Shown here one piece after another: positions 38,898 through 64,000 of a DNA stretch of 64,000 bases. Positions within the stretch are counted from its first letter, which is position 1. The number at the start of each line of letters is the position of its first letter. The notes under the pieces are model-generated. The model was not told the DNA's origin. It ran no database searches and was given only the letters and a program-made list of their open reading frames with translations. The stretch covers positions 1 through 64,000 of the forward strand of contig JANRKO010000073.1 in the NCBI GenBank assembly GCA_033763455.1, read 5' to 3'. Position numbers and translations under genes: made by a program. Source of the DNA: Polyangiaceae bacterium. Lineage in GTDB: Bacteria; Myxococcota_A; Polyangia; Polyangiales; Polyangiaceae.

Positions 38898-39719
38898 GTG
38901 ATCTCCAATGTTAGCCCCTCTGTGCCTGGTTCCAGCACTAGCCAGGCGGCTGAACGCCCGGAGGCACGAGATACGGAACGCTTTTCCGCTGAGCTCGTGG
39001 CCCGCGCTGCCCCGCAAACTGTGCGCGCCGTGCGCACCCCGCTGAGTGGCGAACAGGCTGCACAGGCCCTGGATCGAGCCTGGCAGCAGGTGATGGGAGA
39101 AAAGCCAAGCGAAGAGACGAAAGCCATTCTCACCGCGCAGTGGGCACACGAAACTGGTCGCGGCAGCGCAATGATGAACTTCAATTTTGGTGGACTAAAA
39201 GGCAGCTCGCCAACGGGCTTCGGTACCACCTACACAACGCACGAGGGCTGGGGAAAGTCGGAAGTGAAGATCGTGGATCGCTTTCGCGCCTACCAAACAG
39301 CTGACGAAGGTGCGGCGGACTACGTTGCCTTGCTAAACCGCCGTTACCCTGGAGCTATAGAGGCGGCGAAGTCTGGAGATCCGGCGAAATTCGTGCGTGA
39401 GCTGAAACAGGCGCGTTACTTCACCGGCAATGAAGGCGCCTACGTAAAGTCAGTCTCAAGCTTGGCACAAGCGGCCCTCGCGAGTGGCTTTACCTCGCTC
39501 GGTGGAACCAACGCCGAAACCTCTAGCTTTCCCACGTTCCTGGCGCAGTCCCCGTTGAACGGCGGGGTCGCCTACGCCGATGCCTTCAACGGAACTCTAC
39601 CCGGAGGCCCGCTCGATACACTTTCGTTCACAGGCGTCGAAGCCATCGCGGATGAAGTCGGAAGGGCCGCACTTCGCGATGCAACCGAGCGCAAGGCTGA
39701 CGAAAACCGTCGGGGATAG
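38898..39719 (+). CDS. GH73 glucosaminidase/muramidase (FlgJ catalytic-domain-like)
   Basis: AQWAHETG, NFGGLKG, FRAY, RY...YFT; start uncertain. Confidence 0.8.
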   Translation: MISNVSPSVPGSSTSQAAERPEARDTERFSAELVARAAPQTVRAVRTPLSGEQAAQALDRAWQQVMGEKPSEETKAILTAQWAHETGRGSAMMNFNFGGLKGSSPTGFGTTYTTHEGWGKSEVKIVDRFRAYQTADEGAADYVALLNRRYPGAIEAAKSGDPAKFVRELKQARYFTGNEGAYVKSVSSLAQAALASGFTSLGGTNAETSSFPTFLAQSPLNGGVAYADAFNGTLPGGPLDTLSFTGVEAIADEVGRAALRDATERKADENRRG

Positions 39720-39745
39720 CTGCCCCCGAGCCCTTGTGCCTACGC

Positions 39746-40819
39746 CTACGACTGAGGCCGCGCATATTGCCCAACCCGGGCTAGGATCTCGCTCGCCTGC
39801 TCGCGCTCGCCGGCCTCTGTAAGGTGGCGAGCAAGAGCTGCACCTACGGCTTGGTTGTCCGGGGCAAGAGCGTGTGCCATGCGCCACGCGCTCACCGTAT
39901 CTCGATGCTCCAGCGCTTCGGCAACGGTCGCGAGGCAAGTAACCGCTACCCTGCTCGCAGGATCCAGTTCCACCGCCGAACGCGCGAGCTCGAGCGCTTC
40001 ATATCCGCGGCCAAGCCGGGCCTGAAGCCTCGCCAGAAGCGCCATAGCGCGAGGATCTTCCGGGGCTTTGCCCTTGAGTTCGAAGTAACAGGCAGAAGCT
40101 TCTGCAAACATCCCAAGCTCTTCAAAAAGTGTCCCCAGGCGGAGCTCCGCCTCGCATGCAAGGGCTGCATCACCCGAGCGCCGAGCTTGCTCGAAATGGC
40201 CCTCGGCCACCTCGTGCAGCCCACGCTGACAAGCCCTATCCCCTGCTTCAACAACCTCATACGCGTTGCCTTCGCGACAACCTGCCACGCATGCAACAAA
40301 GCCCGAACCTTCGCCGAACCATCGTTTTGCCACTAACCCCGAAATGCTGAGCAACTGCTGAAGCTCTCCACGGCTGAACGCTCGCCGCGCTGGCGCCGAT
40401 AGTTGTTGCGTTGGGTGTGCCAGCGGCTCCGCGATCCACACGAACGAAGAGGCACGAAGTTGCCGGCGCACGTTGCGCATGACCGCTACTGGATCGACGA
40501 CGTGCCCCAGCACATCCACCAAAACTGCAACATCTGCATCCGGCAACACCGAGCCTAAGGCTGCATCCCCCCGAACGAACGACGCCCGAGGTGCCCATTC
40601 CCGCGCAAAGGCTAACGCCGCCCCATCAATATCCACCCCCACCACGCGTTCGCTCCGGGAAGCCAACACCAGAGCGCCAACTCCGGCCCCCGTCCCCACG
40701 TCGAGCACACGTGCCGTCGGCGGCAATGACTGGCCAATAGTGCTGTAGATTGCACTCGTATCCGGTGCGTGTGAACGCACGCCTGGGTAACGCCGCGTAC
40801 GGCTGGCATGAAGCTGCAC
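39746..40819 (-). CDS. Class I SAM methyltransferase with C-terminal TPR repeats
   Basis: VLDVGTGAG, GVD, DVLGHV; TPR-like helices; start uncertain (ORF open to 40969). Confidence 0.8.
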   Translation of the reverse strand: MQLHASRTRRYPGVRSHAPDTSAIYSTIGQSLPPTARVLDVGTGAGVGALVLASRSERVVGVDIDGAALAFAREWAPRASFVRGDAALGSVLPDADVAVLVDVLGHVVDPVAVMRNVRRQLRASSFVWIAEPLAHPTQQLSAPARRAFSRGELQQLLSISGLVAKRWFGEGSGFVACVAGCREGNAYEVVEAGDRACQRGLHEVAEGHFEQARRSGDAALACEAELRLGTLFEELGMFAEASACYFELKGKAPEDPRAMALLARLQARLGRGYEALELARSAVELDPASRVAVTCLATVAEALEHRDTVSAWRMAHALAPDNQAVGAALARHLTEAGEREQASEILARVGQYARPQS

Positions 40820-40892
40820 CGCAGCACCCGAGGCGAAGTGTGCCCAGTATTCCCCCGGCCGTTCGCCTCGAACCAGCGTTGGCTGCTTCAAG

Positions 40893-41315
40893 CTACCTAC
40901 CCGAGGCAGCCTTTTCGGCCTGTGCCTTTTCGGCCTGTGCCATCGGCACTGCTTTAATCCAAGCTTCACGCAGGGGTGTCAACACACGGATAACGTCTTC
41001 CACAGCTTTACGATCACTACGAATACTGGCTTGCATCAGGCGATCGAGGCAATAATTGTAGACGCTGCCGAGGTTCGCGCAAAGCTCCGGCGCCTTCGAC
41101 TCATCAAGCGCGACGTAGAGTTCTGAGATGATCGCATGCGCCTTCCTAAGCTGCTGGCTTGCGAGGCCCTTCTTCTGCTCATCGATACAACGCAGGGCGG
41201 TGTTCAAGAAGCGAAAGAGCCCTTCATAGAGGGCCAATAGCAACTCTCCTGGTGATGCCGTCTGGGTTTGAACTTCGTGGTATCTTTGAACTGGGCTGCG
41301 ATACGCTTGGTGCAT
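40893..41315 (-). CDS. fliS: Flagellin chaperone FliS
   Basis: TASPGELLLALYEG, NLGSVYNY, LREAW. Confidence 0.95.
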   Translation of the reverse strand: MHQAYRSPVQRYHEVQTQTASPGELLLALYEGLFRFLNTALRCIDEQKKGLASQQLRKAHAIISELYVALDESKAPELCANLGSVYNYCLDRLMQASIRSDRKAVEDVIRVLTPLREAWIKAVPMAQAEKAQAEKAASGR

Positions 41316-41364
41316 TGGTGCATCCTTTCACCAACTAGGACCTATTTACTCTACGTGGAAATAC

Positions 41365-42678
41365 TTAGGCGATCTGTTTGAGCAACGCTTGGTTCTTGGC
41401 AACAGCACTGTCCATTTCGGTAAACTGCTTACGGAGCGTTTCTGTGTATCTCGCTATTCTGGCGCTTTCGCGAGAGATGTGCTCTTCCAGCGCCTTTGCG
41501 CGTGTCTCAAGCCCTGTCCTACGGACGCTTAGTAAGCCTGTCTTCGGATTGGTGAGATCGTCAATCGCGCTTCTGAAGCGATCCATCATGCCGGTGGTGC
41601 CGGGACCACCCGCGAATAGCTTTACGAATTCCGCAGGACGGCTGCTGAGCGCGCTGTCAAACTTCGAATCACTCAACGTGAGCTTGCCAGTGCGATCGAT
41701 CGATACGCCAACATCGGCCAACCGATCCAGGGTACCGCCGAGGCCGGCTGCTCCGGTGGCCAGTGAGGAAAGCTTCGATAATGTACCCCGCAAGCCGGAA
41801 TCTCCTGCGAGTGCTGCGTTTTGCGCCTTGGTGGTGCCAAACCCTGCCAGATTGTGGACCTTATCCACCACCGCATTGTAGGCGCTCACGAACGCACTCA
41901 CTTTGGCCTTTGTCGCTGCTGGATCGGCATCAATGCGCAAGGTGATGGGAGCTGTGGTTTTCGCCGTGAGCGCAAGGCTCACACCCGGAATAGCACCATC
42001 GATCTTGTTGGTCGCACTGCTCACAGGAATGTTATCGATCTTAACGATGGCATTCTGTGCGGCTTGGGCCGGCACTACCCCCTGAAGACCGAGCGCTGTG
42101 CCACTTTCGCTGAATGTAATATTGTTGGCAGCTCCGCTATCGAGACCTCGAATCAGCAACGAATAGTTCGTACCGTCATTGAAAATCGAAGCTGAAACCC
42201 GTAAACCCGAGCTATTGATCTTGTTGGTGATGCTCTCCAACGAATCAGCCGTATCAATGTTGATGGTCGCGGCAGGGCCAGTGCCCACCTGAATATTGAA
42301 CGAACCGGTTTGGTTGAGGCCAACCACCTTGGAAGAGTAGGCAGTTGAGTAGCTGCGCTGCTCTGAGGCAAGCTGCGTAACTTCGAGATTGTACGTCGAA
42401 GCCTGGGCCACACCCGTCGTCGTTGCGACAACTTGCGCGCCGGAAGACGTCGCCGTGAAGCTGCTCACCGAACGTTCATCATAGAGTGCGCCTGCAGCCG
42501 TTTTTAGCTTTGAAAGCAGCCCGGATATGTCCCCCACCGAAGATATCGCCGCGCGAGTGTCAGCGACTTTCTGCTGCGTAGGCTGAAGGCTCGCTTTCTC
42601 GACATTCACCAGGCCACTGATGATGCCCTCAACGTCCATCCCGGAGCCAATTCCTCCAAATGTAATAGCAGCGGGCAT
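41365..42678 (-). CDS. fliD: Flagellar filament cap FliD
   Basis: GIGSGMD, FVSAYN, LRKQFTEMD. Confidence 0.95.
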   Translation of the reverse strand: MPAAITFGGIGSGMDVEGIISGLVNVEKASLQPTQQKVADTRAAISSVGDISGLLSKLKTAAGALYDERSVSSFTATSSGAQVVATTTGVAQASTYNLEVTQLASEQRSYSTAYSSKVVGLNQTGSFNIQVGTGPAATINIDTADSLESITNKINSSGLRVSASIFNDGTNYSLLIRGLDSGAANNITFSESGTALGLQGVVPAQAAQNAIVKIDNIPVSSATNKIDGAIPGVSLALTAKTTAPITLRIDADPAATKAKVSAFVSAYNAVVDKVHNLAGFGTTKAQNAALAGDSGLRGTLSKLSSLATGAAGLGGTLDRLADVGVSIDRTGKLTLSDSKFDSALSSRPAEFVKLFAGGPGTTGMMDRFRSAIDDLTNPKTGLLSVRRTGLETRAKALEEHISRESARIARYTETLRKQFTEMDSAVAKNQALLKQIA

Positions 42679-42702
42679 TCGTTCAATACTCCTTGGGGTT
42701 GT

Positions 42703-42739
42703 AAAAGAAAGCCCGACCGCAGATCCTACGGCCGGGCTT
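42703..42739 (-). terminator. Rho-independent terminator after fliC
   Basis: AAGCCCGGCCGT...GCGGTCGGGCTT followed by TCTTTT on the minus strand. Confidence 0.75.
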
Positions 42740-42794
42740 AATGCACTTGCACTGAACTAGAGTGGTCACGAGGAGCATCACCACTCAGCTTTCA

Positions 42795-43628
42795 TTAACC
42801 TCGGAGGAGGCCGAAAGCCATCTGGGGCAACTGGTTGGCTTGCGACAACACAGAAACACCAGCTTGCGTGAGAACTTGATTGCGGCTCATGGTCGCAGTT
42901 TCCGTGGCGACATCTACGTCGCGGATACGGGAGTTAGCAGCCGAGAGGTTCAAGCTCATGGTTTGGACGGTTGCGGATGAAACGTCCAAGCGGTTCATCG
43001 CGGCACCGAAGCGTGCGCGAGCCGTGGAGACTGTGTCGATCGCCGTGTTGAGCGCGGTGATGGACGCGTAGGCGTTGGTTTCGTCTGCGCCCGTGAGGCT
43101 GATGCCCGCCGTAACGCCCGACAAATCCACGTTGTCGAAGTTCACGGTCACAGAATCGCTGGCGGCTGTGCCGATGCCGACCTGGAACTTCGTGGCGGCG
43201 GCTGCACCGGCACCAATGAGCGATTTGTTGTTAAAAGTAGCTGCGCCCTGGATGCGGGTAATTTCACCCTGAAGCTCCGTGAATTCCGTTTGGAGGTAAG
43301 CACGGTCTGCAGTTGCCAGCGAACCGTTCGAAGCTTGGACGGCCAGCTCCTTCATGCGGCTCATTACGCCGTGAATTTCGCCGAGCGCGCCTTCAGCCGT
43401 TTGCGCCATCGAAACGCCATCCAGAGCGTTGCGCTGGGCCACTGCATAAGAACGAATGTCGCTCTTCATGTGTTCGCTGATCGCTAACCCTGCGGCGTCG
43501 TCAGCTGCGGTATTGACTCGAAAACCGCTGGAAAGCTTCTGGAAGCTCGAATTCAGCTGGGCTTGGTTAGTGGAGAGGTTCTTCTGAGCCGAGAGGGCAG
43601 AGAAGTTGGTCTGAATATACATTGCCAT
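42795..43628 (-). CDS. fliC: Flagellin (277 aa, minimal)
   Basis: LSSGFRVNTAADDAAGLAIS, RARFGAAMNRL, SRIRDVD, QANQLPQ. Confidence 0.98.
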   Translation of the reverse strand: MAMYIQTNFSALSAQKNLSTNQAQLNSSFQKLSSGFRVNTAADDAAGLAISEHMKSDIRSYAVAQRNALDGVSMAQTAEGALGEIHGVMSRMKELAVQASNGSLATADRAYLQTEFTELQGEITRIQGAATFNNKSLIGAGAAAATKFQVGIGTAASDSVTVNFDNVDLSGVTAGISLTGADETNAYASITALNTAIDTVSTARARFGAAMNRLDVSSATVQTMSLNLSAANSRIRDVDVATETATMSRNQVLTQAGVSVLSQANQLPQMAFGLLRG

Positions 43629-43706
43629 GGGGAAAGCTCCTTCTTGGAGGGTGGGATTGTTCTACGTGAACAAGGTTTGCGGAGGCTTTTGACCTCACAA
43701 GAAGAC

Positions 43707-43733
43707 TGAGCGGCTGGGCAGTTCAATACTTGA
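43707..43733 (-). promoter_or_regulatory. Sigma28 (FliA)-type promoter of fliC
   Basis: TCAAG-N14-GCCGCTCA; same architecture as upstream of flgM. Confidence 0.7.
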
Positions 43734-43741: not shown

Positions 43742-44098
43742 TCAGGATGTTAGGGCTAAAGCGCGCTCTTGCAGACGCTCGGAGACAGCTGCCACCGTGT
43801 CGTGCTCGCTACTCGCGCGCTCCGCGATAACCTTGGCGATATACTCGGCCGCTTCCCGATTCGGGATGGGTTTTTCCAGCACGGCGCGACGCGCTTGGCT
43901 CATGGCCTCGGCCAGCTTGGTGATCTGGGTGAAAGCCGTCTCCATCGCGGGAGTTTGGGGTGCTCCCTCGGTATGCGCAGAGACGCCCATCGCGGACAAA
44001 GCCTCGGCGGCTTGGTGGAAGAACTGAACTGCCTCGTGGACCTTTGCCTCAGAATGCAACGTAGTCTGAAGCGGCGTGGATGTATGTCGGACGTTCAC
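43742..44098 (-). CDS. Small helical protein, possibly flagellin-C-terminus-like
   Basis: 118 aa with AAGGA RBS, between csrA and fliC. Confidence 0.65.
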   Translation of the reverse strand: MNVRHTSTPLQTTLHSEAKVHEAVQFFHQAAEALSAMGVSAHTEGAPQTPAMETAFTQITKLAEAMSQARRAVLEKPIPNREAAEYIAKVIAERASSEHDTVAAVSERLQERALALTS

Positions 44099-44212: not shown

Positions 44213-44581
44213 TTATGTGAGTGGGCATATTTCCTCCTCTTTTACTCCTACCCGAATCGAGGGTGCTGGCACCCGCTGGGCTTCACGCGGCTCGTTTGAC
44301 ACAAGCCCAATTTTCTCGTTCGCCGCCCCGGTCGTTTTCGCACTGGAACCGACAAAGGCAGCCAAATTTTCGGTGGCCACCGCTCCCTCCTGCGAAGCCG
44401 TTTCCGTAGCCGCGCGATTTGCCAAAAGGATCGCTTCCCGAATCTCCCCACGCAACACACGCGTGCCTCTAGGAGCTGAGATCGCCACCTTCACTACACT
44501 GCGTGAAAGCTCAGAGATGACGATCTCGACGTCGTCTCCGATGAAGATGCTTTCATTCTTTTTGCGCGCGATGATTAGCAT
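44213..44581 (-). CDS. csrA: Carbon storage regulator CsrA with long C-terminal extension
   Basis: MLIIARKKNESIFIGDD...ISAPR...LRGEI. Confidence 0.92.
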   Translation of the reverse strand: MLIIARKKNESIFIGDDVEIVISELSRSVVKVAISAPRGTRVLRGEIREAILLANRAATETASQEGAVATENLAAFVGSSAKTTGAANEKIGLVSNEPREAQRVPAPSIRVGVKEEEICPLT

Positions 44582-44588: not shown

Positions 44589-45464
44589 TCAAGGTTCGAA
44601 GCGCCGAAGTGATAGGTTTCGCTTAGCCACGGCCAGCGATTGCTCAATGGCATTTTGGACGCTCACAAGCTCTGACATAGCTTCAGAGGCATCGGCTTCG
44701 CCGAGCACAGCCTTTCGCGTTTTGAGCGCCACATCCCCCTGGTCGAGCGCGGATTCGCTGATGCTGAGCCGATCGAGTAACAGACCCGCATCGGCTCGAG
44801 AGCGAACGATCTGGGAATGGGCGTTTCTGATGTTGTCGAGCGTTGCAATAACCGCCGCTTGATCGTTAGTCGAAAGTGCAGTGGCTAGGGCATCCAAGAC
44901 ATCGAATGGATTGACGCCTCCTGCCGCGGTGAAGGCTTTGGCACCGTCAATGGCCACGTTGACCACGTGGTTGGTTCCGAGCTCCACGTTGTGCGGGTCA
45001 GAATTTCCAGCAAAAGCACCGGTATTCGCAAAGGGCACCGTATCGGTGGCACTTCCAGAGAACAAGAACCCGTTCGGACCGCGTGTGTTGGCCATGCTCA
45101 CGAGCTGGTCGCGGAGGCCAGAAATTTCAATTGCCATGGAGGCACGTTCGCTGGCACTCAACGTACCATTGGCGCCCTGCACGGCTAACTCTTGTGCGCG
45201 TTCAAAAAGTGCAGAGGCTTCGCTCAATACCCCTTCTGCGAGCTCTGCGTCGCCACGCGCAGCTCCAATATTAGAACGAAACCCTTCAGCCCGGCTGACC
45301 GCGTGACGGAGCTTCGCGATCTCTGCCGCCGCACGGGGATCTGTACTTGGGCTGGTGACCCGATATCCAGAGCTCACTTCGGCCGCAGCTTTGGCATGCC
45401 GAGCCGTGAGGCTCGCCAAGTTGGCGGAAATCGCTGAATAATTCGCACTATCAGGAACTCTCAT
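44589..45464 (-). CDS. flgL: Hook-associated protein 3
   Basis: SSGYRVTSPSTDP, ANT...FLFSG; downstream of flgK. Confidence 0.92.
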   Translation of the reverse strand: MRVPDSANYSAISANLASLTARHAKAAAEVSSGYRVTSPSTDPRAAAEIAKLRHAVSRAEGFRSNIGAARGDAELAEGVLSEASALFERAQELAVQGANGTLSASERASMAIEISGLRDQLVSMANTRGPNGFLFSGSATDTVPFANTGAFAGNSDPHNVELGTNHVVNVAIDGAKAFTAAGGVNPFDVLDALATALSTNDQAAVIATLDNIRNAHSQIVRSRADAGLLLDRLSISESALDQGDVALKTRKAVLGEADASEAMSELVSVQNAIEQSLAVAKRNLSLRRFEP

Positions 45465-46852
45465 CGGCCTAACCTCTGTATCAACTCATCGAGCAATTGA
45501 TCGACGGTCTGTAGGACCTTGGTGGAGGCCTCGTACGCACGTTGGTACTGCGTGAGCGAAATCATCTCTTCATCCAAGGAGACCCCGCTCACCGTTTCCC
45601 GTAGGTCTTTCGCTTGCGCTTTTAGGGCCTCTTGTGTCGCCGCCGTGCTCGCTGCTCCCGCCTTGAGCTGGCCAACTTGACCGAGCAGCGCGGCAAAATC
45701 CTCGGCTGGCGTACGTGTGCCGCCTCCGGACACGGCTTGCGCGGAAATTTTCGATATCGAAAGCGCGTTATCAGCTCCTCCGGGAAGCGCAGCCGCCGAA
45801 CTCGAAGCAGCCAATCGCTCGGGATGCCCCACGAGCTGGGCATCAATAGACAAGCTGCGCGCGGCTCCCGCAACCGTGGGCGACACGCTGAACAGATTGC
45901 GGCCGTTGATCCCATCGAGCCCAAAACCCGCTGCGTGCTGGGTGTTCACGGCGGTGGCGATGTCGTACGCGAAATTATCAAGCCGGGTCGCAATGGTAGT
46001 GAGGTCGCTGTCGCGCACTTGAAAAATGCCGTCGAGCGTGCCGCCTGAAAGCCCTGAGGTAGCGTCCATTGCTGGCCCGCCGGAACGCTGCGCCATGAGC
46101 TTGAGCGCGCCATTGCTGTCGACATCAATGCCGAGCGCGCGAGCAACATCCCCATCGATCAGCGTGGCGCCTGCGGCTTGGACGGTGATGCGTCCGGATT
46201 CGGCCGTAATCACGTTGATATTGACCTTCTCGCTCAGCTGCTGGAGCAAGGTATTGCGCTGATCTTTTAAATCAACAGCGTCTGAACCCGCATTCTCAGC
46301 CGCCTCTATCTGCTGATTAATCTTGGCAATGTTGGTAGCAAGATCGTTAACTACCTTTACAACGCTGCTAGCTTGGGTCGCGAGATCCGTCCGGAGCGTA
46401 GCCACGGTGTTCGCTGTATCCCGCACTTGGGCCGCGAACACATCCGCAGACGCTAACGCTTGCGCTCGTGTCGTAGGATCGTTGGGTCGAGCCGCAAGGG
46501 TCGAAAACGAGGTAAAAAACTGATCCATGGCGCCACCCATGCGCGCCCCAAGGGTCTCATCGAAAAGGCCATCGATCTGCGCCAGCTGCTGATCGCGTTC
46601 ATTCGCGGAGGAAGAGAGCCCTGATTTGTCAAAGTACCGCTGTTCAAGGAAACGGTCTGTGATACGGCGCACTTCAACCGCGTCGACACCGCCATAAGCT
46701 CCCGGCCCATAGGGACGAGGCTCTAGGATTACGGCACGACGCGCGTAACCGGGCGTATTGACGTTGGCAATGTTTTGCCCGGTCGTCTGAAGGCCACGCG
46801 AGTGTGCCTGCAAAGCATCGCGCGACGTGTAGAGGATTGAAAACAGACCCAT
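45461..46852 (-). CDS. flgK: Hook-associated protein 1
   Basis: NIANVNTPGYAR, SGVSLDEE, YQRAYEAS. Confidence 0.96.
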   Translation of the reverse strand: MGLFSILYTSRDALQAHSRGLQTTGQNIANVNTPGYARRAVILEPRPYGPGAYGGVDAVEVRRITDRFLEQRYFDKSGLSSSANERDQQLAQIDGLFDETLGARMGGAMDQFFTSFSTLAARPNDPTTRAQALASADVFAAQVRDTANTVATLRTDLATQASSVVKVVNDLATNIAKINQQIEAAENAGSDAVDLKDQRNTLLQQLSEKVNINVITAESGRITVQAAGATLIDGDVARALGIDVDSNGALKLMAQRSGGPAMDATSGLSGGTLDGIFQVRDSDLTTIATRLDNFAYDIATAVNTQHAAGFGLDGINGRNLFSVSPTVAGAARSLSIDAQLVGHPERLAASSSAAALPGGADNALSISKISAQAVSGGGTRTPAEDFAALLGQVGQLKAGAASTAATQEALKAQAKDLRETVSGVSLDEEMISLTQYQRAYEASTKVLQTVDQLLDELIQRLGR

Positions 46853-47220: not shown

Positions 47221-47263
47221 GCTGCTTACCCAAAGGCTTCCCTGCCCCTGGGGGAACCCGCTA

Positions 47264-47642: not shown

Positions 47643-47669
47643 TGAACGGCCAACTCCGTGACGGCTTGA
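47643..47669 (-). promoter_or_regulatory. Sigma28-type promoter of flgM
   Basis: TCAAG-N14-GCCGTTCA. Confidence 0.7.
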
Positions 47670-52670: not shown

Positions 52671-52687
52671 AGCAAGACGCGGGCCAA
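52671..52687 (-). promoter_or_regulatory. Sigma54 promoter of the activator gene
   Basis: TTGGCCCGCGTCTTGCT, GG-N10-GC. Confidence 0.7.
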
Positions 52688-52972: not shown

Positions 52973-52989
52973 TTGGCACACCGCGTGCT
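52973..52989 (+). promoter_or_regulatory. Sigma54 promoter of flgB operon
   Basis: TTGGCACACCGCGTGCT, GG-N10-GC. Confidence 0.8.
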
Positions 52990-55832: not shown

Positions 55833-56816
55833 ATGGCTGAACTCACCGGCCCCGAAAAGGCAGTATTGATGCTGCTCTCGATGGACGAAAGCACTGCCGT
55901 GCCAGTCGTGGCCGAGCTCGACGCAACCGACATCAAGAAGCTGCGCGATGTGGCGCTCTTGATGCGGGAAGTCCCGGCAAGTTCGCTGGATCGGGTGTAC
56001 CAAGAGTTCATCGCACGCACGCAACAAGCCGTGGCGGTACCGAAGGGTGGCGAGCGCTACCTGCGAAAGATCACTACTCGGGCACTCGGCGAAGCCAAGA
56101 CCAACGAACTCTTTCACGAAGGCGCCACCTCTGCCATGGAGCGTCTTTCAAGCGCGGATCCCACCCAGCTTGGATCGATCCTCGAACGTGAACACCCTCA
56201 ATTGGTAGCGGCTCTAATGTCGCAAATGAGTACCGACCGAGCTGCCCTGCTCCTTCAGGCGCTGCCCGAAGAACAGCGTTCCGTCGTACTCGAACGGTTA
56301 AGCACCATGACGGAAATCCCCGCCGGGCTCTTGGAAGAGGTCGCCGCAGCGCTCAGCACGGAGCTGCCCACCGGTGGCACCGAAGCCGCCATCTCGGTAG
56401 ATGGTATCAGCCGCTCAGCCGCTTTGGTGCGCAAGCTCGGACGCGAATTAGGCGAAGCACTGCTTGAAAACATGGACCAAGGGAACTCTGCCTTAGCTGC
56501 CGAAATTCGCCGCTCCATGTACTCGTTCGAGGACTTGAAGGTTATCGACAAGAAGGCAATGCGCGATCTCCTGAAGGAAATCGCCACCGATAGGCTCGCT
56601 CTCGCCCTCAAGACAGCCAGCGAAGAGCTGAAGATTCATTTCCTCTCTGCCATGTCAAAGCGTGCCGCAGAAATGATGCGTGAAGACATGGAGCTATTGG
56701 GGGGAGTGCGCTTGAGCGACGTTGAAGCCGCCCAACGCGAAATCGTCGAAACAGCGCTGCGCCTGGAATCCGAAGGCGTCTTGTCGCTGGATACGGGCGG
56801 TGAGCAGATTGTCTGA
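55833..56816 (+). CDS. fliG: Motor switch protein
   Basis: EHPQ, MYSFEDL, MSKRAA, DVEAAQ. Confidence 0.96.
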   Translation: MAELTGPEKAVLMLLSMDESTAVPVVAELDATDIKKLRDVALLMREVPASSLDRVYQEFIARTQQAVAVPKGGERYLRKITTRALGEAKTNELFHEGATSAMERLSSADPTQLGSILEREHPQLVAALMSQMSTDRAALLLQALPEEQRSVVLERLSTMTEIPAGLLEEVAAALSTELPTGGTEAAISVDGISRSAALVRKLGRELGEALLENMDQGNSALAAEIRRSMYSFEDLKVIDKKAMRDLLKEIATDRLALALKTASEELKIHFLSAMSKRAAEMMREDMELLGGVRLSDVEAAQREIVETALRLESEGVLSLDTGGEQIV

Positions 56817-57648
56817 TAGGGACTCCAACGCGCGCTTTCTGGTGAAGGGCAAAGGCCCCGGCAAGATGCCATCTTGGATTGCTAAAGGCGCGACCCAAGG
56901 CGACATGGCAGCGCCCGACGTTTCAACGCTGCGTCCGCCACGCCTTCCCACCGATCTTACCGGAGTGACCCTGCAAGCCCAGGAGCAAATGCCCAAGAGG
57001 TCTCGGGATCAACGGCCACGCTCTCGGCCTCCGCGGGGACCGGCAGGGCACGCCTCTCCCCCTCGGAGAGGCGCAGCGGATTTTGATCTAACCGGCGCGG
57101 CAGCTTCGGCGGCAATGCGCGGGGGGATCCCTGCGCGCGCGCACCTGGACTCCGTTCCACCTCCGCCCGAATCACGCCGCTCTCATAGCGTGTTTCCAGA
57201 GGTTGGCTTCGTTGTCGACGAAACGGCGCGCGCCCAACTCGAAGCGAACCTCGTCAATCTTGCGAACCTCCGCAAACAACTCACGCGCCAGATGCAGGGG
57301 CAGCTAGTGGATCTTGCCGTGCTCATTGCTGAACGCGTTATCGCCAAAGAATTGGAGACGCCTGGGCCCACGCTAAGGGCGCTAGTTGCTGAGGGTTTGG
57401 AAGCATTGACGCACCAAGATCAGCTGCTTATCCGCCTGGGGCAAGCCTTTGAGCCGCATCTTGAGAGCCTAAAATCTGCCCTTAGCGTCCAGGCACCGCA
57501 CGCCGAGGTGGTGATGGATGGTAACTTGGATCCGTATGCTTGCATTTTGCACAGCGAGCTTGGGCGGGTGGATGAATCCATCGACCAACGTTTGAAAACG
57601 ATCCTCGGTCTTGCCCAAGAAACTCTAGCCGAGGCCGACGATGAGTGA
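56809..57648 (+). CDS. fliH: Flagellar export protein FliH with long disordered N-terminus
   Basis: LAVLIAERVIAKEL, SELGRVDESI; between fliG and fliI; start uncertain. Confidence 0.85.
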   Translation: MSDRDSNARFLVKGKGPGKMPSWIAKGATQGDMAAPDVSTLRPPRLPTDLTGVTLQAQEQMPKRSRDQRPRSRPPRGPAGHASPPRRGAADFDLTGAAASAAMRGGIPARAHLDSVPPPPESRRSHSVFPEVGFVVDETARAQLEANLVNLANLRKQLTRQMQGQLVDLAVLIAERVIAKELETPGPTLRALVAEGLEALTHQDQLLIRLGQAFEPHLESLKSALSVQAPHAEVVMDGNLDPYACILHSELGRVDESIDQRLKTILGLAQETLAEADDE

Positions 57649-58966
57649 CGCCTTCGCCCGGGTTTTTGAAGCACTCAAACACGCGCCCGCGCACACTCCT
57701 GTAGGCACCGTCATCGACGTGGTGGGAATGGTGCTTGAGATCGGTGGCGTGCGGGCGGCCGTCGGTGATTGCCTGGAGATCACCTCCACATCTGGGCTCT
57801 TGCCGGTGGAGGTAGTTGGGTTTCGACAAGGCAAGCTTTTAGCTACACCGCTAGGTTCCACCAGCGGGATCCGACCCGGTGCACGTGTGGTGCATACGCA
57901 CCGAGGCGCGACTGTTCCTGCAGGCGAGGCGCTGCTCGGCAGAGTGATCGACTCCTTTGGTTCTCCGCTCGATGGCCTCCCCAAGCCTCCCAAGCTTCGG
58001 CGCTGCCCTGTTCACGCCGCCCCCCCTTCCCCGTTCTTGCGTCGCCCCATTGCCCAGCCTTTCGAGACGGGCGTTCGAGTGATCGACGGTTTTTTGAGTC
58101 TCGGGCTTGGGCAGCGTGTGGGCATCTTCGCCGGTGCCGGCGTAGGCAAAAGCACCCTCCTTGGCATGATTTGCCGTTCTTCCGAAGCGGATGTGAACGT
58201 CGTAGCGCTGGTCGGTGAGCGTGGACGTGAGCTCAATGATTTCGTAAGAAATGCACTGGGTGAAGCAGGGCTCGCGCGGAGCGTAGTGGTGGCCGCTACG
58301 AGCGATCAACCTCCGCTGGTTCGAGCACGTGGAGCAGAATCTGCGACTGCGATCGCTGAGCACTTTCGCGACCAGGGGAAAAGCGTGCTACTAATCATGG
58401 ATTCGGTGACGCGCTATGCGATGGCGCTGCGCGAAACCGCGTTAGCCGCGGGCGAGCCGCCGGCGACTAAGGGGTACACGCCTTCCGTGTTCGCAGCGTT
58501 GCCTCGTCTCCTAGAGCGTGCGGGGACAAGTGCTGGCCCGGGAGTCATTACGGCGCTTTACACCGTGTTAGTTGAAGGGGACGACCTTTCAGATCCGATT
58601 GCAGACGCCGTGCGCGGCATCTTGGATGGCCACATCGTTTTGTCGCGCAATCTGGCGGAGAGAGGCCATTTTCCGGCGGTGGATGTGCTCGGGAGCATTT
58701 CGCGCGTTGCCCCTGACGTCGCGGAAAAGAGCCTACTTCAAGACGCTTCCGCGCTGCGCGGCATGTTGGGTGCGTACCGTGACGTTGCGGACTTGATCCA
58801 GGTGGGTGCGTACCAAGACGGGAGCGATCCGAGGGCGGACGCCGCTCGAAAACTGATGCCGCAAATCGATCAATTTTGTCGCCAAGATGTTCATGAACGG
58901 GGCACCACCTTGGGTGAAACCAAAGCGCGGCTCCGAGTGTTGGCCACGCAAGGTAGCAAACGCTGA
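57641..58966 (+). CDS. fliI: Flagellar export ATPase
   Basis: AGAGVGKS, GERGRE, DSVTRYAMALRE, GEPPATKGY, DGHIVLSR. Confidence 0.97.
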   Translation: MSDAFARVFEALKHAPAHTPVGTVIDVVGMVLEIGGVRAAVGDCLEITSTSGLLPVEVVGFRQGKLLATPLGSTSGIRPGARVVHTHRGATVPAGEALLGRVIDSFGSPLDGLPKPPKLRRCPVHAAPPSPFLRRPIAQPFETGVRVIDGFLSLGLGQRVGIFAGAGVGKSTLLGMICRSSEADVNVVALVGERGRELNDFVRNALGEAGLARSVVVAATSDQPPLVRARGAESATAIAEHFRDQGKSVLLIMDSVTRYAMALRETALAAGEPPATKGYTPSVFAALPRLLERAGTSAGPGVITALYTVLVEGDDLSDPIADAVRGILDGHIVLSRNLAERGHFPAVDVLGSISRVAPDVAEKSLLQDASALRGMLGAYRDVADLIQVGAYQDGSDPRADAARKLMPQIDQFCRQDVHERGTTLGETKARLRVLATQGSKR

Positions 58967-59412
58967 TGGATCGCCGCCGTATTCAGAAGTTGCTCGAACT
59001 TCGGCAGAAGGCACTCGATACCAAAGTCTCCGAGCTCGGAGCAGCACGCCAGGCCGTTGAAACAGCGATCGCGGCTGTGACCCGGGCGGCAAGCGCACTC
59101 GAACGTGCCGCCGACGAACGCAAACAAATGAATCGTGCGGGCGCCGACTGGCAAACCTGGGTCACTACTCAGGATTGGATGAGCCTCAAGGCGCGCGAGT
59201 TTTCAGCCGCGCAGCAGCAAAAGTCCCACTGTGAGCGCCTCGCAGAGCGCGCGCTCGCCGCCGTCCATAAAGCGCGCTCAGAAGCCCTCCGTATCGAAGC
59301 GCTGCTGGCCCGCGTAGACAGTGAAGCACGGCAGAAAGAGCTCAGGAAAGAACGACGCGCCGAAGACGAATTTCAAGCCAATCAATCAGCACGGGAGGAA
59401 ATCTCGCGATGA
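58966..59412 (+). CDS. fliJ: Export chaperone FliJ
   Basis: 148-aa coiled coil after fliI, ER..EDE near C-terminus. Confidence 0.8.
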   Translation: MDRRRIQKLLELRQKALDTKVSELGAARQAVETAIAAVTRAASALERAADERKQMNRAGADWQTWVTTQDWMSLKAREFSAAQQQKSHCERLAERALAAVHKARSEALRIEALLARVDSEARQKELRKERRAEDEFQANQSAREEISR

Positions 59413-59999
59413 CGCCCACGCTCGGGAACTTCTCGACTCGCATCGAGCTCGCCCTCACGGACACGAGTCAGGGTGCCCCATCGGACGACGATGCCACCTG
59501 GGCAAGAGTTGCCGCAGCCTTTGCCCACAGCGCACCACCTCCGATGCCCGTATCCGTAAATGGCACGGCAGCGTCAGCCGCCTGGCGCCCAAACGACGTC
59601 CCCGTGACGGCCACCGCAGACTCTCCCCAAGGCGCAGCCGCTAGCAGTCAGCTCGGTAGCACCGCCAGTGCAGGGGCCGAACCTGGGAGCCTCTCATTGA
59701 AGTTTTCAACCCCGGAATTCGGAGAAATGTCGCTAAAGGTTGAGCGCAGCCTCACCGGCACTCGAGTTGAGCTGAGTGTTGAGCAACTCAATGCCTTTCA
59801 GAGGCTGCAGGGAGAACTGCAGAACCTCGGCAATGTCTTGCGCGCCGCCGGGCTGAACATCGCCTCGCTACAGGTAGTCCAGAAGGCTGGCACTGCCCTT
59901 GCACAGCAAGCGAATGGTCGTCGCAATATCGCCTTGGTGGGTCAACCCCAGGCCCACTCCAGCAACCCAGAACGGCGACGAGTGAAAGTAATAGGATAA
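59409..59999 (+). CDS. fliK: Short hook-length control protein
   Basis: Ala/Pro/Ser-rich N-part plus C-terminal switch domain (TPEFGEMSLKV...LRAAGL); before flgD. Confidence 0.75.
   Translation: MTPTLGNFSTRIELALTDTSQGAPSDDDATWARVAAAFAHSAPPPMPVSVNGTAASAAWRPNDVPVTATADSPQGAAASSQLGSTASAGAEPGSLSLKFSTPEFGEMSLKVERSLTGTRVELSVEQLNAFQRLQGELQNLGNVLRAAGLNIASLQVVQKAGTALAQQANGRRNIALVGQPQAHSSNPERRRVKVIG
59888..59903 (+). promoter_or_regulatory. Internal sigma54 promoter for flgDE
   Basis: TGGCACTGCCCTTGCA inside fliK 3' end, about 100 bp before flgD. Confidence 0.75.
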
Positions 60000-60002: not shown

Positions 60003-60671
60003 GTGGTAAGCCCCGTAAGCAATCAACCCCCCCTATTAGGAGTCAATGCCTCGAAGGAATCGGGCATGGGGAAAGATGATTTTCTGAAGCTTTTGGTCGC
60101 TCAATTGAAGCACCAAGACCCATTGAAGCCCGTAGAAAATACGGAGTTTGTAAGCCAGCTCGCGCAGTTTTCCTCGCTCGAACAAACCATGGGCATCAAT
60201 AGCCGCTTGGACCTTCTGGCGATGCAGAGCAAAGGCCAATCCAATACCGATGCGGTCGGCTTCATCGGTAAACACGTGAGTGTTGCTGGCAACGCTATCA
60301 CCCTAGATTCCAGTGGTACGGGGGCATCTGTGGGGTTTGAGCTCGCGGGGGACGCCGAGAAGACCAGCGTTGTTATCCACGACCAAAACGGGAAAACGGT
60401 GCGCACGTTGGACGTCGGGAAACATGCCGCCGGTGCCGTGAAGGTGCAGTGGGATGGCAAGAATTCCGATGGCATCACGCAACCGCCAGGCACCTATTCG
60501 GTTACCATAGAGGCGCAGAGTGCCGATGATTCTGCCGTATATGCCATTCAAAAGACACAAGGCACCGTGACTGGTGTCTCGTTCGATCGCGGCTACGCCG
60601 TGCTCACTCTCGACAACGGTGTGACAGCACCAGTCTCGGATCTCCTCGAGGTCCAGGCAACAGCCAAGTAG
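60003..60671 (+). CDS. flgD: Hook capping protein
   Basis: DFLKLLVAQLKHQDPLKP, QLAQFSSLEQ, WDGK. Confidence 0.96.
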   Translation: MVSPVSNQPPLLGVNASKESGMGKDDFLKLLVAQLKHQDPLKPVENTEFVSQLAQFSSLEQTMGINSRLDLLAMQSKGQSNTDAVGFIGKHVSVAGNAITLDSSGTGASVGFELAGDAEKTSVVIHDQNGKTVRTLDVGKHAAGAVKVQWDGKNSDGITQPPGTYSVTIEAQSADDSAVYAIQKTQGTVTGVSFDRGYAVLTLDNGVTAPVSDLLEVQATAK

Positions 60672-60689: not shown

Positions 60690-61985
60690 ATGCTCAAAGC
60701 TTTGAACACAGGCGTTTCTGGGATGCGGGCCGAAGGCGAAGCCATCAGTGTGGTCGGCGATAACATAGCGAACGTGAACACCGTTGGCTTTAAGCGGCAA
60801 CGCTCCATTTTCGAAGACATGCTTGGCCGTTCGGTCATCCAAGGAACCAGTGCAAAGCTTCCGGGGTCGGGAGTAACGCTCTCCAAAGTTCAGAACATGT
60901 TCCACCAGGGAACGCTTTCTAGTACGGGCGTTTCGACGGATTTGGCACTCAACGGTGAAGGCTTTTTTGTTGTGAACGGCACCGTGGGTGGCGTAACTGG
61001 CGACTTCTATTCGCGCGCCGGGCAATTCACCGTCGACAACGGTGGCTTGCTGGTAAATCCCTCTGGAATGAGGGTTCAAGGCTTCAAGGCAAATCCTGAT
61101 GGCACATTTGCCTCTGGCCTTTCAGACGTCCAAATTCCTCTCAACGCGATTCCTCCAAAGATAACCGCTAATGCCAAGGTAGTGGCCAACCTCGATTCCT
61201 CTTCGACGCCCCCTACCCTCGCGTGGGATCCGCTGGATCCTACCGCAACCTCCAATGGCTCAACCTCGATGACGGTTTACGATTCGCTTGGAAACGGGCA
61301 CAGCATGGACATCTACTTCCGCAACAACGGCGCGGGCACGTGGGAATACCACGTGATTGCTTCGGGCGATGAGGTCAACCCGGCTCAGCCCGGCAGGAAC
61401 GTCGAGATCGGCTCGGGCACAATGTCTTTCAACACCTCCGGAGCGCTCGATACAATGACCCCCGGCGTCCCAGTCACCGTGGACTTCACCAACGCCGCCC
61501 CCGGTCAGGTCATCAACCTGGATTTCGGTTCCCAGGTATCTGTTCCCCCCGGCACGGGCCTGGATGGCCTCACCCAGTTTGCTTCCAAAACAAGTGTCGA
61601 CCAGCAATCCCAAGACGGCTACGCCGCCGGTGAGTTCAGCGGCGTCAGCGTAACCAGCCAAGGCGTCGTGGAAGGCCTGTACACCAACGGCCAGAAGATC
61701 CCCATTTCTCAGTTGGGCGTGGCTAAGTTCACCTCCAATGACGGTCTGAGCCGCGCAAGCAATGGTCTTTGGATGCAAACTCGTGAAAGCGGCGAGCCAG
61801 CAATTGGGACCGCCACCGCAGGGGGCCGCGGGGCCATCTCGGGCGGAGCGCTCGAATCATCCAACGTAGATCTCGCCGAAGAGTTCGTGGATCTCATCAC
61901 ACATCAGCGCGCTTTTGCGGCCAACTCTCGCACCATCACCACCGCAGATGAGATGCTCCAAGAAACCCTCCAGCTCAAGCGCTAA
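60690..61985 (+). CDS. flgE: Hook protein
   Basis: GDNIANVNTVGFK, VYDSLG, LESSNVDLAEE, QRAFAAN. Confidence 0.97.
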   Translation: MLKALNTGVSGMRAEGEAISVVGDNIANVNTVGFKRQRSIFEDMLGRSVIQGTSAKLPGSGVTLSKVQNMFHQGTLSSTGVSTDLALNGEGFFVVNGTVGGVTGDFYSRAGQFTVDNGGLLVNPSGMRVQGFKANPDGTFASGLSDVQIPLNAIPPKITANAKVVANLDSSSTPPTLAWDPLDPTATSNGSTSMTVYDSLGNGHSMDIYFRNNGAGTWEYHVIASGDEVNPAQPGRNVEIGSGTMSFNTSGALDTMTPGVPVTVDFTNAAPGQVINLDFGSQVSVPPGTGLDGLTQFASKTSVDQQSQDGYAAGEFSGVSVTSQGVVEGLYTNGQKIPISQLGVAKFTSNDGLSRASNGLWMQTRESGEPAIGTATAGGRGAISGGALESSNVDLAEEFVDLITHQRAFAANSRTITTADEMLQETLQLKR

Positions 61986-62024: not shown

Positions 62025-62609
62025 GTGTCAGACGACGAAGAGAACAAAGACGAGAAGGCCGCTCCCAAGAAGAAACCCGTAGTTCTCTTTGCCATTATTG
62101 GCGTGGTTCTACTCGGCGGAGTCGGGGCAGCGGTCGTGTTCGCTGGGCCCGCACTCGGGATCGGAGGGGACGAGAGCGCAGCGGAGGCAAAAGCCACCAA
62201 GAAGAAGAAGAAACCCAAGAAGGGTGAGGCAAAAGCCGCGGACGGCGAAAGTGCGGACGGCGAAGCTGATCTCCCCGAAGAAGATCCGGCAACAGCCGGC
62301 ATCAAAAGCAAGATATCACGCCTGAATTCACTGGTTGTGGACGTCCAAGATACAGACGGTTCACGCCACCACGTGAAGATCAACATTGCCGTCGAGCATC
62401 CCGAAGGCAAAGAGGAAGAGTTCGTGACCCTAGAGCCCCGCGCCCGAGAGTCGCTCATTCTGTACCTTCGCACGCTCAACTTCGCGCAAGCCACTGATCC
62501 AAACGGCTTCGGTAAGATTCGGGATGAAGTCATCCAGAGGATGCGCAAGGCCTTTGGCGAGGAGTTTCCCGCACGCAGGATCCTCATCACCGATTTTGTT
62601 GCCCAATGA
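62025..62609 (+). CDS. fliL: Basal-body associated protein
   Basis: N-terminal TM, C-terminal ILITDFVAQ. Confidence 0.88.
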   Translation: MSDDEENKDEKAAPKKKPVVLFAIIGVVLLGGVGAAVVFAGPALGIGGDESAAEAKATKKKKKPKKGEAKAADGESADGEADLPEEDPATAGIKSKISRLNSLVVDVQDTDGSRHHVKINIAVEHPEGKEEEFVTLEPRARESLILYLRTLNFAQATDPNGFGKIRDEVIQRMRKAFGEEFPARRILITDFVAQ

Positions 62610-63481
62610 GCCTCGACCCAGACTCGGTTCAGCCTCTCGATCTCACCGGAAGAGATCGCCAAGTGCGGTCAGCAATGGGCATAATGTCGCACATTGCCGC
62701 CAATTTTTCCCGCGCAGCCCGCCGCACCCTACCTTTTTTGGTTAAGCAGAAGGGTCGCCTCGTGCCGGGTGCGGTGGCATTTACCTCTCCGTCTGACGAC
62801 GAACCAGCGGATGGACCACGCTTCGTAGTGTCGTTGGAGGCTGACGAAGGAAACGGCTGGGCGGATCTCACGCTGGATGCGGCCGCGATTTCGGTAATGC
62901 TCGATGGTGCCCTTGGGGCGGCGGGCGGCACTGAATCTGCCGTCCTGACGCAGGAATTGACGCTCGCTCAGCGAGCGCTCATTACGCGAGTCGCCCGTTC
63001 GTTAGCAGGCGACTTCGCGCAAGCGTGTCGTGAGGAATCGGGAGTCCCCGTCAAGGTTGTGTCGGCACGCGCAGTTGCCCCCGGGGAAAATGGGAACAAG
63101 CCGAGTACCCAAGGCATGTATGTGCGTTGTGATTTTGACGGGATGCCCGTCAAAGCGTCGATCACTCTGGGCGTTAGCTCTACCGGTTTGGAAGAGGCTG
63201 CGCGCGAAGTAGCCGAAGGTCAAACTGGCCACTTTGAGGGGGATCCACGGGTTGCTGACGCTATCCGCGACGTCTCTTTGACGCTCATCGCGGAACTCGG
63301 GAACGTGAAACTCAATCTACGCGAGGTTCTACGACTCCAGGCGGGCGACGTTCTGCGCTTGAATACCGCCATCGATGATCCAATCACCATCCGTGTTGGT
63401 CAATTAGTGAAGCTTAGAGGGTCTCCTGTCATCTCGCGCGGTCAGCTGGCCATCGAGATCCGAGGTCGGCACGGGTTGTGA
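62606..63481 (+). CDS. fliM: Motor switch protein FliM (N-terminally short)
   Basis: Middle domain plus C-terminal SpoA domain (AELG...LQAGDVLRL); between fliL and fliN. Confidence 0.85.
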   Translation: MSLDPDSVQPLDLTGRDRQVRSAMGIMSHIAANFSRAARRTLPFLVKQKGRLVPGAVAFTSPSDDEPADGPRFVVSLEADEGNGWADLTLDAAAISVMLDGALGAAGGTESAVLTQELTLAQRALITRVARSLAGDFAQACREESGVPVKVVSARAVAPGENGNKPSTQGMYVRCDFDGMPVKASITLGVSSTGLEEAAREVAEGQTGHFEGDPRVADAIRDVSLTLIAELGNVKLNLREVLRLQAGDVLRLNTAIDDPITIRVGQLVKLRGSPVISRGQLAIEIRGRHGL

Positions 63482-63942
63482 ATAGGAAGGCGTTGGACAT
63501 GACCGACGCCTTCGACGAAAAGAACCCTGGACGCCCTCGACCCCACAGCAACCCCCCCGACGACATGGTCTCCATGGGGTCGCTGGACGAGGAGCTGGAC
63601 GCTGACGAGCGGCGCGGGCATCCAGGCGTCGCGCCGATGCCTGCAGCGAAGGCTTCGGCATCGCACGGACCTGGTGCTCGTGGCCTGGATAGCCTGGCGT
63701 TCGTGATGGATGTTCCGGTCGAGGTCACCGTCGAAATCGGGCGTCGGACGATGAAGATTGCGGACGTTCTCCGTCTCGGCCCCGGGTCAGTTCTTGAGCT
63801 CGACAAGGCTAGCGGTGAGCCCCTCGATATACTGGTGAACAACCGTTTGGTCGCGCGCGGAGAGGCCGTAGTTGTCGGAGAACGCTACGGCATCCGCCTT
63901 ACCGAGGTTTTGGTCAACGAAGACACACGCGGAGGACAGTGA
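63478..63942 (+). CDS. fliN: Motor switch protein FliN
   Basis: DVPVEVTVEIG, GSVLELDK..GEP, ARGEAVVV...YGIRLTE. Confidence 0.95.
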   Translation: MNRKALDMTDAFDEKNPGRPRPHSNPPDDMVSMGSLDEELDADERRGHPGVAPMPAAKASASHGPGARGLDSLAFVMDVPVEVTVEIGRRTMKIADVLRLGPGSVLELDKASGEPLDILVNNRLVARGEAVVVGERYGIRLTEVLVNEDTRGGQ

Positions 63943-64000
63943 TGCGAAACTCAATCATCTTGGCAACTCTATTGACGCTTAGCTTTGGCGGAGCGGTAGA
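63942..64000 (+). CDS. 5' fragment of next gene (signal peptide; FliO-like by position)
   Basis: GGAGG RBS, ATG overlapping fliN stop, MRNSIILATLLTLSFGGAV. Confidence 0.45.
   Translation, partial: MRNSIILATLLTLSFGGAV

Follow-up and report, generated by a model that had tools for sequence, protein, structure and literature searches.

Does an uncultured member of the Polyangiaceae encode a complete flagellum, and was that flagellum inherited within its lineage or recently acquired? The question is raised by a 64,000-nucleotide stretch of DNA, referred to here as the window, which forms the first 64 kb of the 165,149-bp contig C73 of a metagenome-assembled genome (MAG), G000, and which carries a long run of flagellar genes in its right-hand part. 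Analysis of this cluster and of its relatives indicates that it is very probably a flagellar regulon carried on the chromosome of an uncultured Polyangiaceae member and inherited vertically, which encodes a standard Gram-negative flagellum. The cluster is real and native, and the predicted apparatus probably functional; its gene content suggests that the organelle would be assembled and would support swimming.

The host genome comprises 6.56 Mb in 92 contigs with a uniform GC content of 0.59, and is estimated to be 93.67% complete and 2.84% contaminated. Indirect yet consistent sequence evidence places it in the Polyangiales/Polyangiaceae of the phylum Myxococcota. A scan for FlhA in named species genomes returned three loci with 92–93% identity, two from Polyangiales and one from an uncultured Polyangiaceae member, and homologues carry the NCBI name "[Polyangiaceae bacterium]". 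These names, of same-genus records and of homologues, bear out the Polyangiales-like host put forward in the original prediction. RelA, encoded on the same contig about 8 kb past the right edge of the cluster, shows 57–73% identity within the family and 39–52% to other classes, and the RelA tree recovered the family, order and class groups based on the Genome Taxonomy Database (GTDB). RelA and the GTDB-based taxonomy codes were used as the basis for the tree comparison. As further species markers, RpoB was dropped when its domain PF00562 was not found in G000, and LeuC, on the left flank (window 18,819–20,237), was dropped when an orthologue was found at E ≤ 1e-60 in just 13 of 30 flagellated Myxococcota genomes. 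By that count, leucine biosynthesis appears patchy across the phylum.

Integrity and descent of the flagellar cluster

Thirty-one closely packed, collinear open reading frames (ORFs) in three transcription blocks occupy window positions 38,856–63,942. Curated cut-offs in Pfam or NCBIfam were reached by 25 of them (23 flagellar genes, CsrA and a sigma-54 activator), which span 40,893–63,942 from FliS through FliN. FliJ, a FlgN-like ORF and a rod-binding (FlgJ-N-like) ORF gave matches below threshold, and the remaining three are a glucosaminidase, a methyltransferase fused to tetratricopeptide repeats (TPR) and one unknown ORF. The earlier count of about 28 flagellar genes with no visible frameshifts was a fair one, and the flagellar cluster itself is confirmed. 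It extends to C73:72,788, with FliO, FliP, FliQ, FliR, FlhB, FlhA, FlhF, FliA, FlgF and FliW encoded in the next 9 kb. From window position 38,856 to that end, the whole block holds about 41 genes in 34 kb, and ordinary genes including RelA/SpoT lie to its right.

The export gate genes FliP, FliQ, FliR, FlhB and FlhA, together with FliO, all directly follow fliN on C73 (FHIPEP, 814 bits; Bac_export_2, 339 bits). In the same extension, FliA was recognized by NF005413 (206 bits, cut-off 201) and FlhF by TIGR03499 (177.3 bits, cut-off 174.15). Adjacent motA and motB genes were located at G000:C31:24,240–26,077. MotA carries a MotA_N domain and scored 321.5 bits with TIGR03818 (cut-off 303.8), while MotB carries MotB_plug and OmpA domains; the pair is predicted to form a stator of the MotA1 family, presumably driven by protons. 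Export gate, stator, FliA and FlgF, which the window itself does not hold, are all present in the genome, as an intact system presupposes. The encoded parts would comprise a FliPQR–FlhBA gate with FliHIJ, MS and C rings, rod, L and P rings, hook, junction, filament, cap and a MotAB stator.

A strand switch near 38.7 kb, where the original prediction had allowed for a chimera, marks the start of the cluster, and the MAG consists of 92 contigs, with contamination estimated at 2.84%. These features would suit an assembly or binning artefact in which the flagellar half of the contig came from another organism. Such an artefact is extremely improbable, as independent same-genus assemblies preserve the same junction. 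Contig C63 of G001 is collinear with window 35,000–43,000 in five blocks of 66–79% nucleotide identity, and G002 and G003 are likewise collinear across the 38.7-kb junction. Moreover, short Logan contigs from three runs bridge it, at 38,003–38,761 (X1), 38,513–38,975 (X2) and 38,710–38,915 (X3); X1 and X2 belong to one study and X3 to another. Within the single 165-kb contig, housekeeping genes flank the cluster on both sides, the RelA gene past its far end assigns the contig to the same family, and the GC content is a uniform 0.59. In tetranucleotide distance, the cluster ranks at the 82nd percentile among 160 genome windows of its size. GC at third codon positions (GC3) in 22 flagellar genes ranges from 0.57 to 0.69, and the median for the genome is 0.654. 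There is thus no chimera at 38.7 kb, and the composition of the cluster is native.

Extensions rich in S-x-P-P and Pro/Arg, shared between flagellar and neighboring host proteins, had been read as a further sign of residence. Such segments do exist. S-x-P-P occurs 0.74 times per 1000 amino acids in 41 flagellar proteins versus 0.38 in long background ORFs, so that the sharing is weakly true, and Pro/Arg/Ser-rich 30-mers were found in five of the 41 proteins (FlgA, FliH, FliI, FliO and FlhF) versus 7.8% of background ORFs. As evidence of residence, these extensions are weak.

Between G001 and G000, the 38 genes that start with the glucosaminidase and end with FlhA are all collinear and stop-free. 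Synonymous divergence (dS) was saturated (above 1.1 or undefined) and nonsynonymous divergence (dN) ranged from 0.03 to 0.43, with dN/dS of 0.02–0.25 wherever computable; FliH and the methyltransferase were compared as proteins (74% and 60% identity, respectively). The cluster is under strong purifying selection.

A combined FlhA and FlgI tree was built from 31 genomes and 1040 alignment columns, with support given by the Shimodaira–Hasegawa-like approximate likelihood ratio test (SH-aLRT). It recovered the class clade with a support of 99 and the order clade with 91. Both order subclades of the RelA tree reappeared (100 each), as did an eight-member family core holding G000 (100), which is also found in the RelA tree. 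FlhA and FlgI identities drop with taxonomic distance in step with RelA. For this lineage, flagellar genes and host taxonomy agree from the genus up to the class.

Flagellar clusters are compact, and their transfer between lineages does occur; a recently acquired island from a flagellated phylum has therefore to be set beside inheritance within the Polyangiales. Some observations weigh against strictly vertical descent. With FlhA and FlgI, a monophyletic GTDB family is rejected by the approximately unbiased (AU) test (p 2e-9), and the family members G009 and G188 group with G054 (family f11) and G057 (f17) with an SH-aLRT of 100. This single conflict, inside the f1/f11/f17 group, reflects either transfer among close families, in which case descent there is not strictly vertical, or family limits at odds with the gene tree. 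The tree holds Myxococcota without an outgroup from another phylum, so that a flagellum ancestral to the Myxococcota and one ancient import are inseparable in it. RpoB is missing from a MAG estimated as 93.67% complete, a domain search of G000 for PF00562 (RNA polymerase beta subunit) having found none, which is a gap in the MAG. A recent import is nevertheless very improbable: composition and GC3 are native, the same cluster occupies the same chromosomal place in all three same-genus genomes, FlhA and FlgI identities fall in step with RelA, and genus, family core, order and class are all recovered in the tree. Native composition, genus-wide synteny, purifying selection and a tree that follows taxonomy thus support a long-resident cluster, and on this point the original prediction holds.

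Genes of the cluster and the divergent FliM

The left edge of the cluster is formed by a plus-strand gene for a glucosaminidase-domain protein resembling the muramidase half of FlgJ (38,856–39,719; PF01832, 48.1 bits, cut-off 30.2). FlgJ equivalogs match it weakly, and it is 67% identical in G001. It is followed by minus-strand genes as far as the sigma-54 activator. The first encodes the class I methyltransferase fused to TPR repeats (39,746–40,969; Methyltransf_11/25 and TPR matches), which sits between the FlgJ-like glucosaminidase and fliS, holds the same place in G001 with 60% amino acid identity over 399 residues, and may modify flagellin or act in assembly. The filament genes are fliS for the flagellin chaperone (40,893–41,315; PF02561, 105 bits), fliD for the cap (41,365–42,678; FliD_N, FliD_C) and fliC for a 277-residue flagellin reduced to its D0/D1 core (42,795–43,628; Flagellin_N 129.9 bits, Flagellin_C 79.1 bits). 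Upstream of fliC lies a 118-residue ORF (43,742–44,098), 51% identical in G001, for which Pfam and NCBIfam searches gave no family match. CsrA, a translational repressor, is encoded next (44,213–44,581; PF02599, 60.3 bits), probably starting at an internal Met; the gene for its partner FliW lies past the window end.

The hook–filament junction proteins are FlgL (44,589–45,464; Flagellin_N, 68 bits, and position after flgK) and FlgK (45,461–46,852; FlgK_D1, 184 bits). A putative FlgN-like chaperone (46,855–47,220) is suggested by its position and by a PF05130 match of 17.5 bits, under the cut-off of 30.5. It adjoins FlgM, the anti-sigma-28 factor (47,264–47,551; PF04316, 39.9 bits). A candidate rod-binding protein that resembles FlgJ's N-terminal half (47,718–48,053) gave 33.3 bits with TIGR02541 and 19.5 bits with PF10135, both below cut-off. 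The L- and P-ring set is present in full, with FlgI of the P ring (48,050–49,186; PF02119, 422.8 bits), FlgH of the L ring (49,191–49,880; PF02107, 168 bits) and the P-ring chaperone FlgA (49,877–50,611; PF13144, 34.6 bits). The distal rod protein FlgG (50,614–51,399; Flg_bb_rod, D1 and Flg_bbr_C domains) appears to start at an internal Met. The minus-strand run ends with the sigma-54 activator (51,547–52,629; PF00158, 238 bits), which consists of an AAA+ core and a helix-turn-helix domain; all of its NCBIfam matches are below cut-off.

The genes from flgB onward lie on the plus strand. They open with the proximal rod proteins FlgB (53,004–53,396; TIGR01396, 66.9 bits, cut-off 59.05) and FlgC (53,400–53,831; Pfam), followed by FliE (53,837–54,169; PF02049, 71.7 bits), the MS-ring protein FliF (54,180–55,817; YscJ_FliF, YscJ_FliF_C) and the rotor protein FliG (55,833–56,816; FliG_N, FliG_M, FliG_C). 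An export ATPase complex is complete with FliH and FliI above cut-offs and FliJ below threshold in its canonical place. FliH (56,866–57,648; PF02108, 47.6 bits) has a Pro/Arg-rich N-terminal part and an uncertain start, and is the protein that is 74% identical in G001; FliI, the ATPase, lies at 57,641–58,966 (ATP-synt_ab, T3SS_ATPase_C) and the putative FliJ at 58,966–59,412 (PF02050, 20.6 bits versus 28.4; TIGR02473, 32.4 versus 50.45). A short, 196-residue FliK-like hook-length protein (59,409–59,999; PF02120, 31.3 bits, cut-off 29.8) precedes the hook cap FlgD (60,003–60,671; Pfam) and the hook protein FlgE (60,690–61,985; Pfam). The rod, hook, junction, filament and cap set (FlgB, C, F, G, FliE, FlgD, E, FliK, FlgK, L, FliC and FliD) was likewise found in full. 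FliL (62,025–62,609; PF03748, 49.1 bits), a divergent FliM (62,606–63,481) and FliN (63,499–63,942; TIGR02480, 105.3 bits, cut-off 84.05) close the series, and the 5′ end of fliO (63,939–64,000) carries the cluster past the window.

The ORF in the fliM position matches only the C-terminal domain shared by FliM and FliN (Pfam FliMN_C). It has no detectable Pfam FliM domain, and a genome-wide search found no canonical FliM domain anywhere in G000. At E ≤ 1e-5, 136 homologues were retrieved, with PF01052 as the sole domain among the 120 matches listed; many are named FliM at JGI, and several at NCBI are "FliM/FliN family ... [Polyangiaceae bacterium]". An AlphaFold2 model was built on 36 homologues (mean predicted local distance difference test score 78.1). 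It matched full-length Salmonella FliM chains from C-ring cryo-electron microscopy at E 2.8e-14 and crystal structures of FliM middle domains with a target template-modeling score of about 0.7. On the strength of the modeled fold, the ORF is assigned as FliM, though divergent. The MS- and C-ring set is thus represented by FliF, FliG and FliN through Pfam and NCBIfam, and by FliM through its C-terminal domain and predicted fold.

Textbook FliM carries an acidic N-terminal peptide to which CheY docks. In the 36 homologues, a short N-terminus of variable sequence runs into an invariant LDLTGRER block, and no conserved acidic docking peptide was found among them. As a result, chemotactic switching in this FliM clade may differ from the usual. 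Relocation of the docking peptide from FliM to FliN was considered and dropped, since the acidic FliN segment SLDEELDAD is present only in the four closest of 36 homologues.

Chemotaxis genes lie on other contigs. A second flagellin is encoded on C20, where its neighbors within G000:C20:54,519–65,600 are a receiver (REC)–sigma-54 activator, a 779-residue CheA and a methyl-accepting chemotaxis protein, the last a 1389-residue globin-GAF-PAS chemoreceptor. The locus may be an oxygen- or redox-sensing taxis input. CheW-domain matches number 12 in G000, on contigs C20, C21 and C68. A second FHIPEP-family gene (661-residue frame) was observed apart from the flagellar cluster at G000:C19:53,326–55,164. 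Its product is probably part of a type III secretion system other than the flagellar one, and a second FHIPEP match was also seen in most relatives searched.

Candidate promoters and proposed regulation

The original prediction credited the cluster with sigma-54 and sigma-28 promoters of its own. For sigma-54, a search for −24/−12 sites with at most one mismatch, the only setting used for these results, found six in the window versus 2.74 expected, a number reached by 3 of 100 shuffles; at two mismatches the pattern was uninformative (41 matches versus 38.35 expected). Four of the six precede flgG, flgB, flgD and the activator gene by 15–100 nt. Exact sites were found 27 nt upstream of flgG (51,426–51,441, minus strand) and 100 nt upstream of flgD (59,888–59,903, plus strand), and sites with one mismatch 42 nt upstream of the activator gene (52,671–52,686, minus strand) and 15 nt upstream of flgB (52,974–52,989, plus strand).

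For sigma-28, the E. coli-type consensus at three mismatches gave 13 matches in the window versus 9.83 expected, which is not above chance, so that the case is one of position and similarity alone. From two hits of that search a local motif was derived, TCAAG-N14-GCCG(C/T)TCA, shared before fliC and flgM. The copy 80 nt upstream of fliC reads TCAAG-N14-GCCGCTCA (43,707–43,733), a second lies 93 nt upstream of flgM (47,643–47,669), and a third, with N15, lies in the flgB/activator intergenic region (52,928–52,955), all on the minus strand. The three copies are suggestive as candidate promoters. Genome-wide, the motif has 18 matches. No copy was found in the 220 nt preceding the second flagellin gene or motA.

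In the sigma-54 activator, which heads the flgG operon, about 40 residues precede the AAA+ core and no receiver domain was detected; the protein may consequently be controlled in trans. By analogy with characterized families, a tiered scheme suggests itself. Sigma-54 and the receiver-less activator would drive the rod, ring and hook operons, while FlgM would hold FliA (sigma-28) until the hook–basal body is complete. FliA, freed on FlgM export, would then drive flagellin and flgM, with FliW, CsrA and FliS tuning flagellin translation and export. FlhF suggests polar placement of the flagellum.

Vibrio, Pseudomonas, Campylobacter and Geobacter are among the polar flagellates that have sigma-54/FlhF-type hierarchies. 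The cluster resembles these in its sigma-54 sites before rod and hook operons, its enhancer-binding activator, its late tier of FliA and FlgM, and its FlhF. Unlike theirs, the activator here has neither a receiver nor a FleQ-type N-domain, and no FlhG adjoins FlhF in the cluster, FlhG not having been searched for genome-wide. A further difference is the presence of a FliW–CsrA module, which is typical of Bacillus and Campylobacter.

Motility, known systems and distribution

Two sediment metagenomes, both from a single study, contain the stretch with word shares of 0.80 and 0.52, and it may originate from them. In addition, contigs from X7, a wetland metatranscriptomic library of another study, align to fliC at 42,765–42,924 (one difference), 42,980–43,151 (four) and 43,494–43,663 (none), to flgM at 47,237–47,461 (one difference) and to the rod-binding gene at 47,876–48,000. 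The contigs on fliC and flgM hint at expression of the flagellar genes. As for other motility genes, the type IV pilus secretin PilQ was identified at G000:C60 (TIGR02515, 428 bits, cut-off 284.35). The best match to the gliding equivalog GltE (NF033758) reached 96.3 bits versus a cut-off of 225; as the sole Glt protein tried, it does not decide the matter of gliding.

Several observations count against a functional flagellum. The lineage is known without a culture, micrograph or motility assay, and the X7 pieces are RNA-library contigs in which DNA carry-over is possible, covering only 8 of 30 bins of a 12-kb stretch. FliJ, FlgN and the split FlgJ have sub-threshold matches only, FlhF is without an adjoining FlhG, and FliM lacks both the Pfam domain and the conserved docking peptide. 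The genes might be kept without swimming, the apparatus being repurposed for secretion, adhesion or surface sensing, or its assembly being confined to a rare life stage. Cultured relatives glide, PilQ indicates that other motility exists, FliK is short at 196 residues, and the divergent FliM is without an evident CheY-docking peptide, all of which would fit. This explanation is nonetheless unlikely. Filament, cap, junction, L and P rings and a MotA1-type stator would be required for nothing but an external filament that rotates, and purifying selection acts on all of them. RNA-library contigs fall on flagellin and flgM, and a cultured member of the phylum, Persicimonas caeni, is flagellated as seen by electron microscopy.

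Flagella are already documented in the Myxococcota, among which the Polyangiaceae cluster is a clean new example. According to Thomas et al. 2008 (PMC2330069), Anaeromyxobacter dehalogenans 2CP-C has a 55.7-kb flagellar cluster, argued to be ancestral and not acquired, swimming was noted for Anaeromyxobacter strain K, and previously characterized myxobacteria as well as three published myxobacterial genomes were without flagella. The two systems are alike as large Myxococcota flagellar clusters in genomes that also carry type IV pilus genes. They differ in class, Anaeromyxobacter belonging to the Myxococcia and the Polyangiaceae cluster to the Polyangia. In Anaeromyxobacter, that text places motAB and che inside the cluster, whereas here they are on other contigs; it also reports fliJ, flgN, fliT, flgA, flgJ and fliK as missing there, whereas FlgA and a FliK-like protein are present here, with weak matches for FliJ, FlgN and a split FlgJ.

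Persicimonas caeni YN101T (Bradymonadales) has flagellar assembly genes, and its flagella were seen by electron microscopy (PMC7188933); as described there, it is a cultured marine predator of the class Bradymonadia. No comparable structure has been seen in any of the Polyangiaceae. Zodletone Myxococcota MAGs are reported to encode flagellar assembly (bioRxiv 10.1101/2021.07.06.451402), and marine Myxococcota/Bdellovibrionota MAGs, including Polyangiales, often have flagellum and pilus genes among the highest expressed (PMC11937823). A 2026 preprint treats the Myxococcota as a motile phylum (10.64898/2026.06.16.732483). Variants of FliO in the Myxococcota and non-flagellar type III secretion systems of the phylum are covered by a FliO survey (PMC12403147). 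Those systems share with the cluster a FliPQR/FlhBA-type export gate and a FliO homologue, and are without the flagellin, hook, rod, L and P rings and stator that the cluster has. A full-text literature search, with subscription journals outside its coverage, found no paper devoted to flagella in the Polyangiaceae or Polyangia.

Flagellin (PF00669) was found in all 3 genomes of the genus, in 15 of 24 genomes of the family and in 6 of 16 other families of the order, each represented by one genome. FlgI (PF02119) was found in 22 of 39 genomes of the family, in 73 of 200 genomes of the order (14 of its 24 families) and in 119 of 300 genomes of the phylum that were at least 85% complete. Judged by gene content, family, order and phylum are commonly flagellated and the lineage is not exceptional, which removes most of the surprise. 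The rarity of a flagellated myxobacterial lineage implied by the original prediction was not borne out by these counts, nor by the flagellated Myxococcota already published. The prediction had also presumed that the genome falls outside any normally flagellated lineage, a presumption that, on gene content, nearly fails. Separately, in another genome of the family, G012, FlgI and flagellin matches are stop-broken or split (C108:17,975–18,639, C108:35,374–35,730 and C141:125,593–125,877); its flagellar cluster looks like one in decay, with loss in progress.

A broader reading, given an even chance, is that the flagellum is ancestral to the Polyangia and has been kept by most uncultured Polyangiaceae genera, so that the textbook picture of myxobacteria as gliders without flagella would come from culture bias and repeated, ongoing losses, with a FliM that has no CheY-docking peptide. 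If true, a FliM of this kind would imply a different coupling of chemotaxis to the rotor, and for motor biology the divergent protein is a small, testable lead. The cluster opens no new kind of system, and is a clean, well-supported case in an under-discussed pattern. Among the genomes sampled, about four in ten Myxococcota species, and more than half of the family that includes the Sorangium-type cellulose degraders, carry host-tracking flagellar genes. Swimming is thus probable for many myxobacteria of water and sediment, to which models of predation and dispersal based on gliding may not apply.

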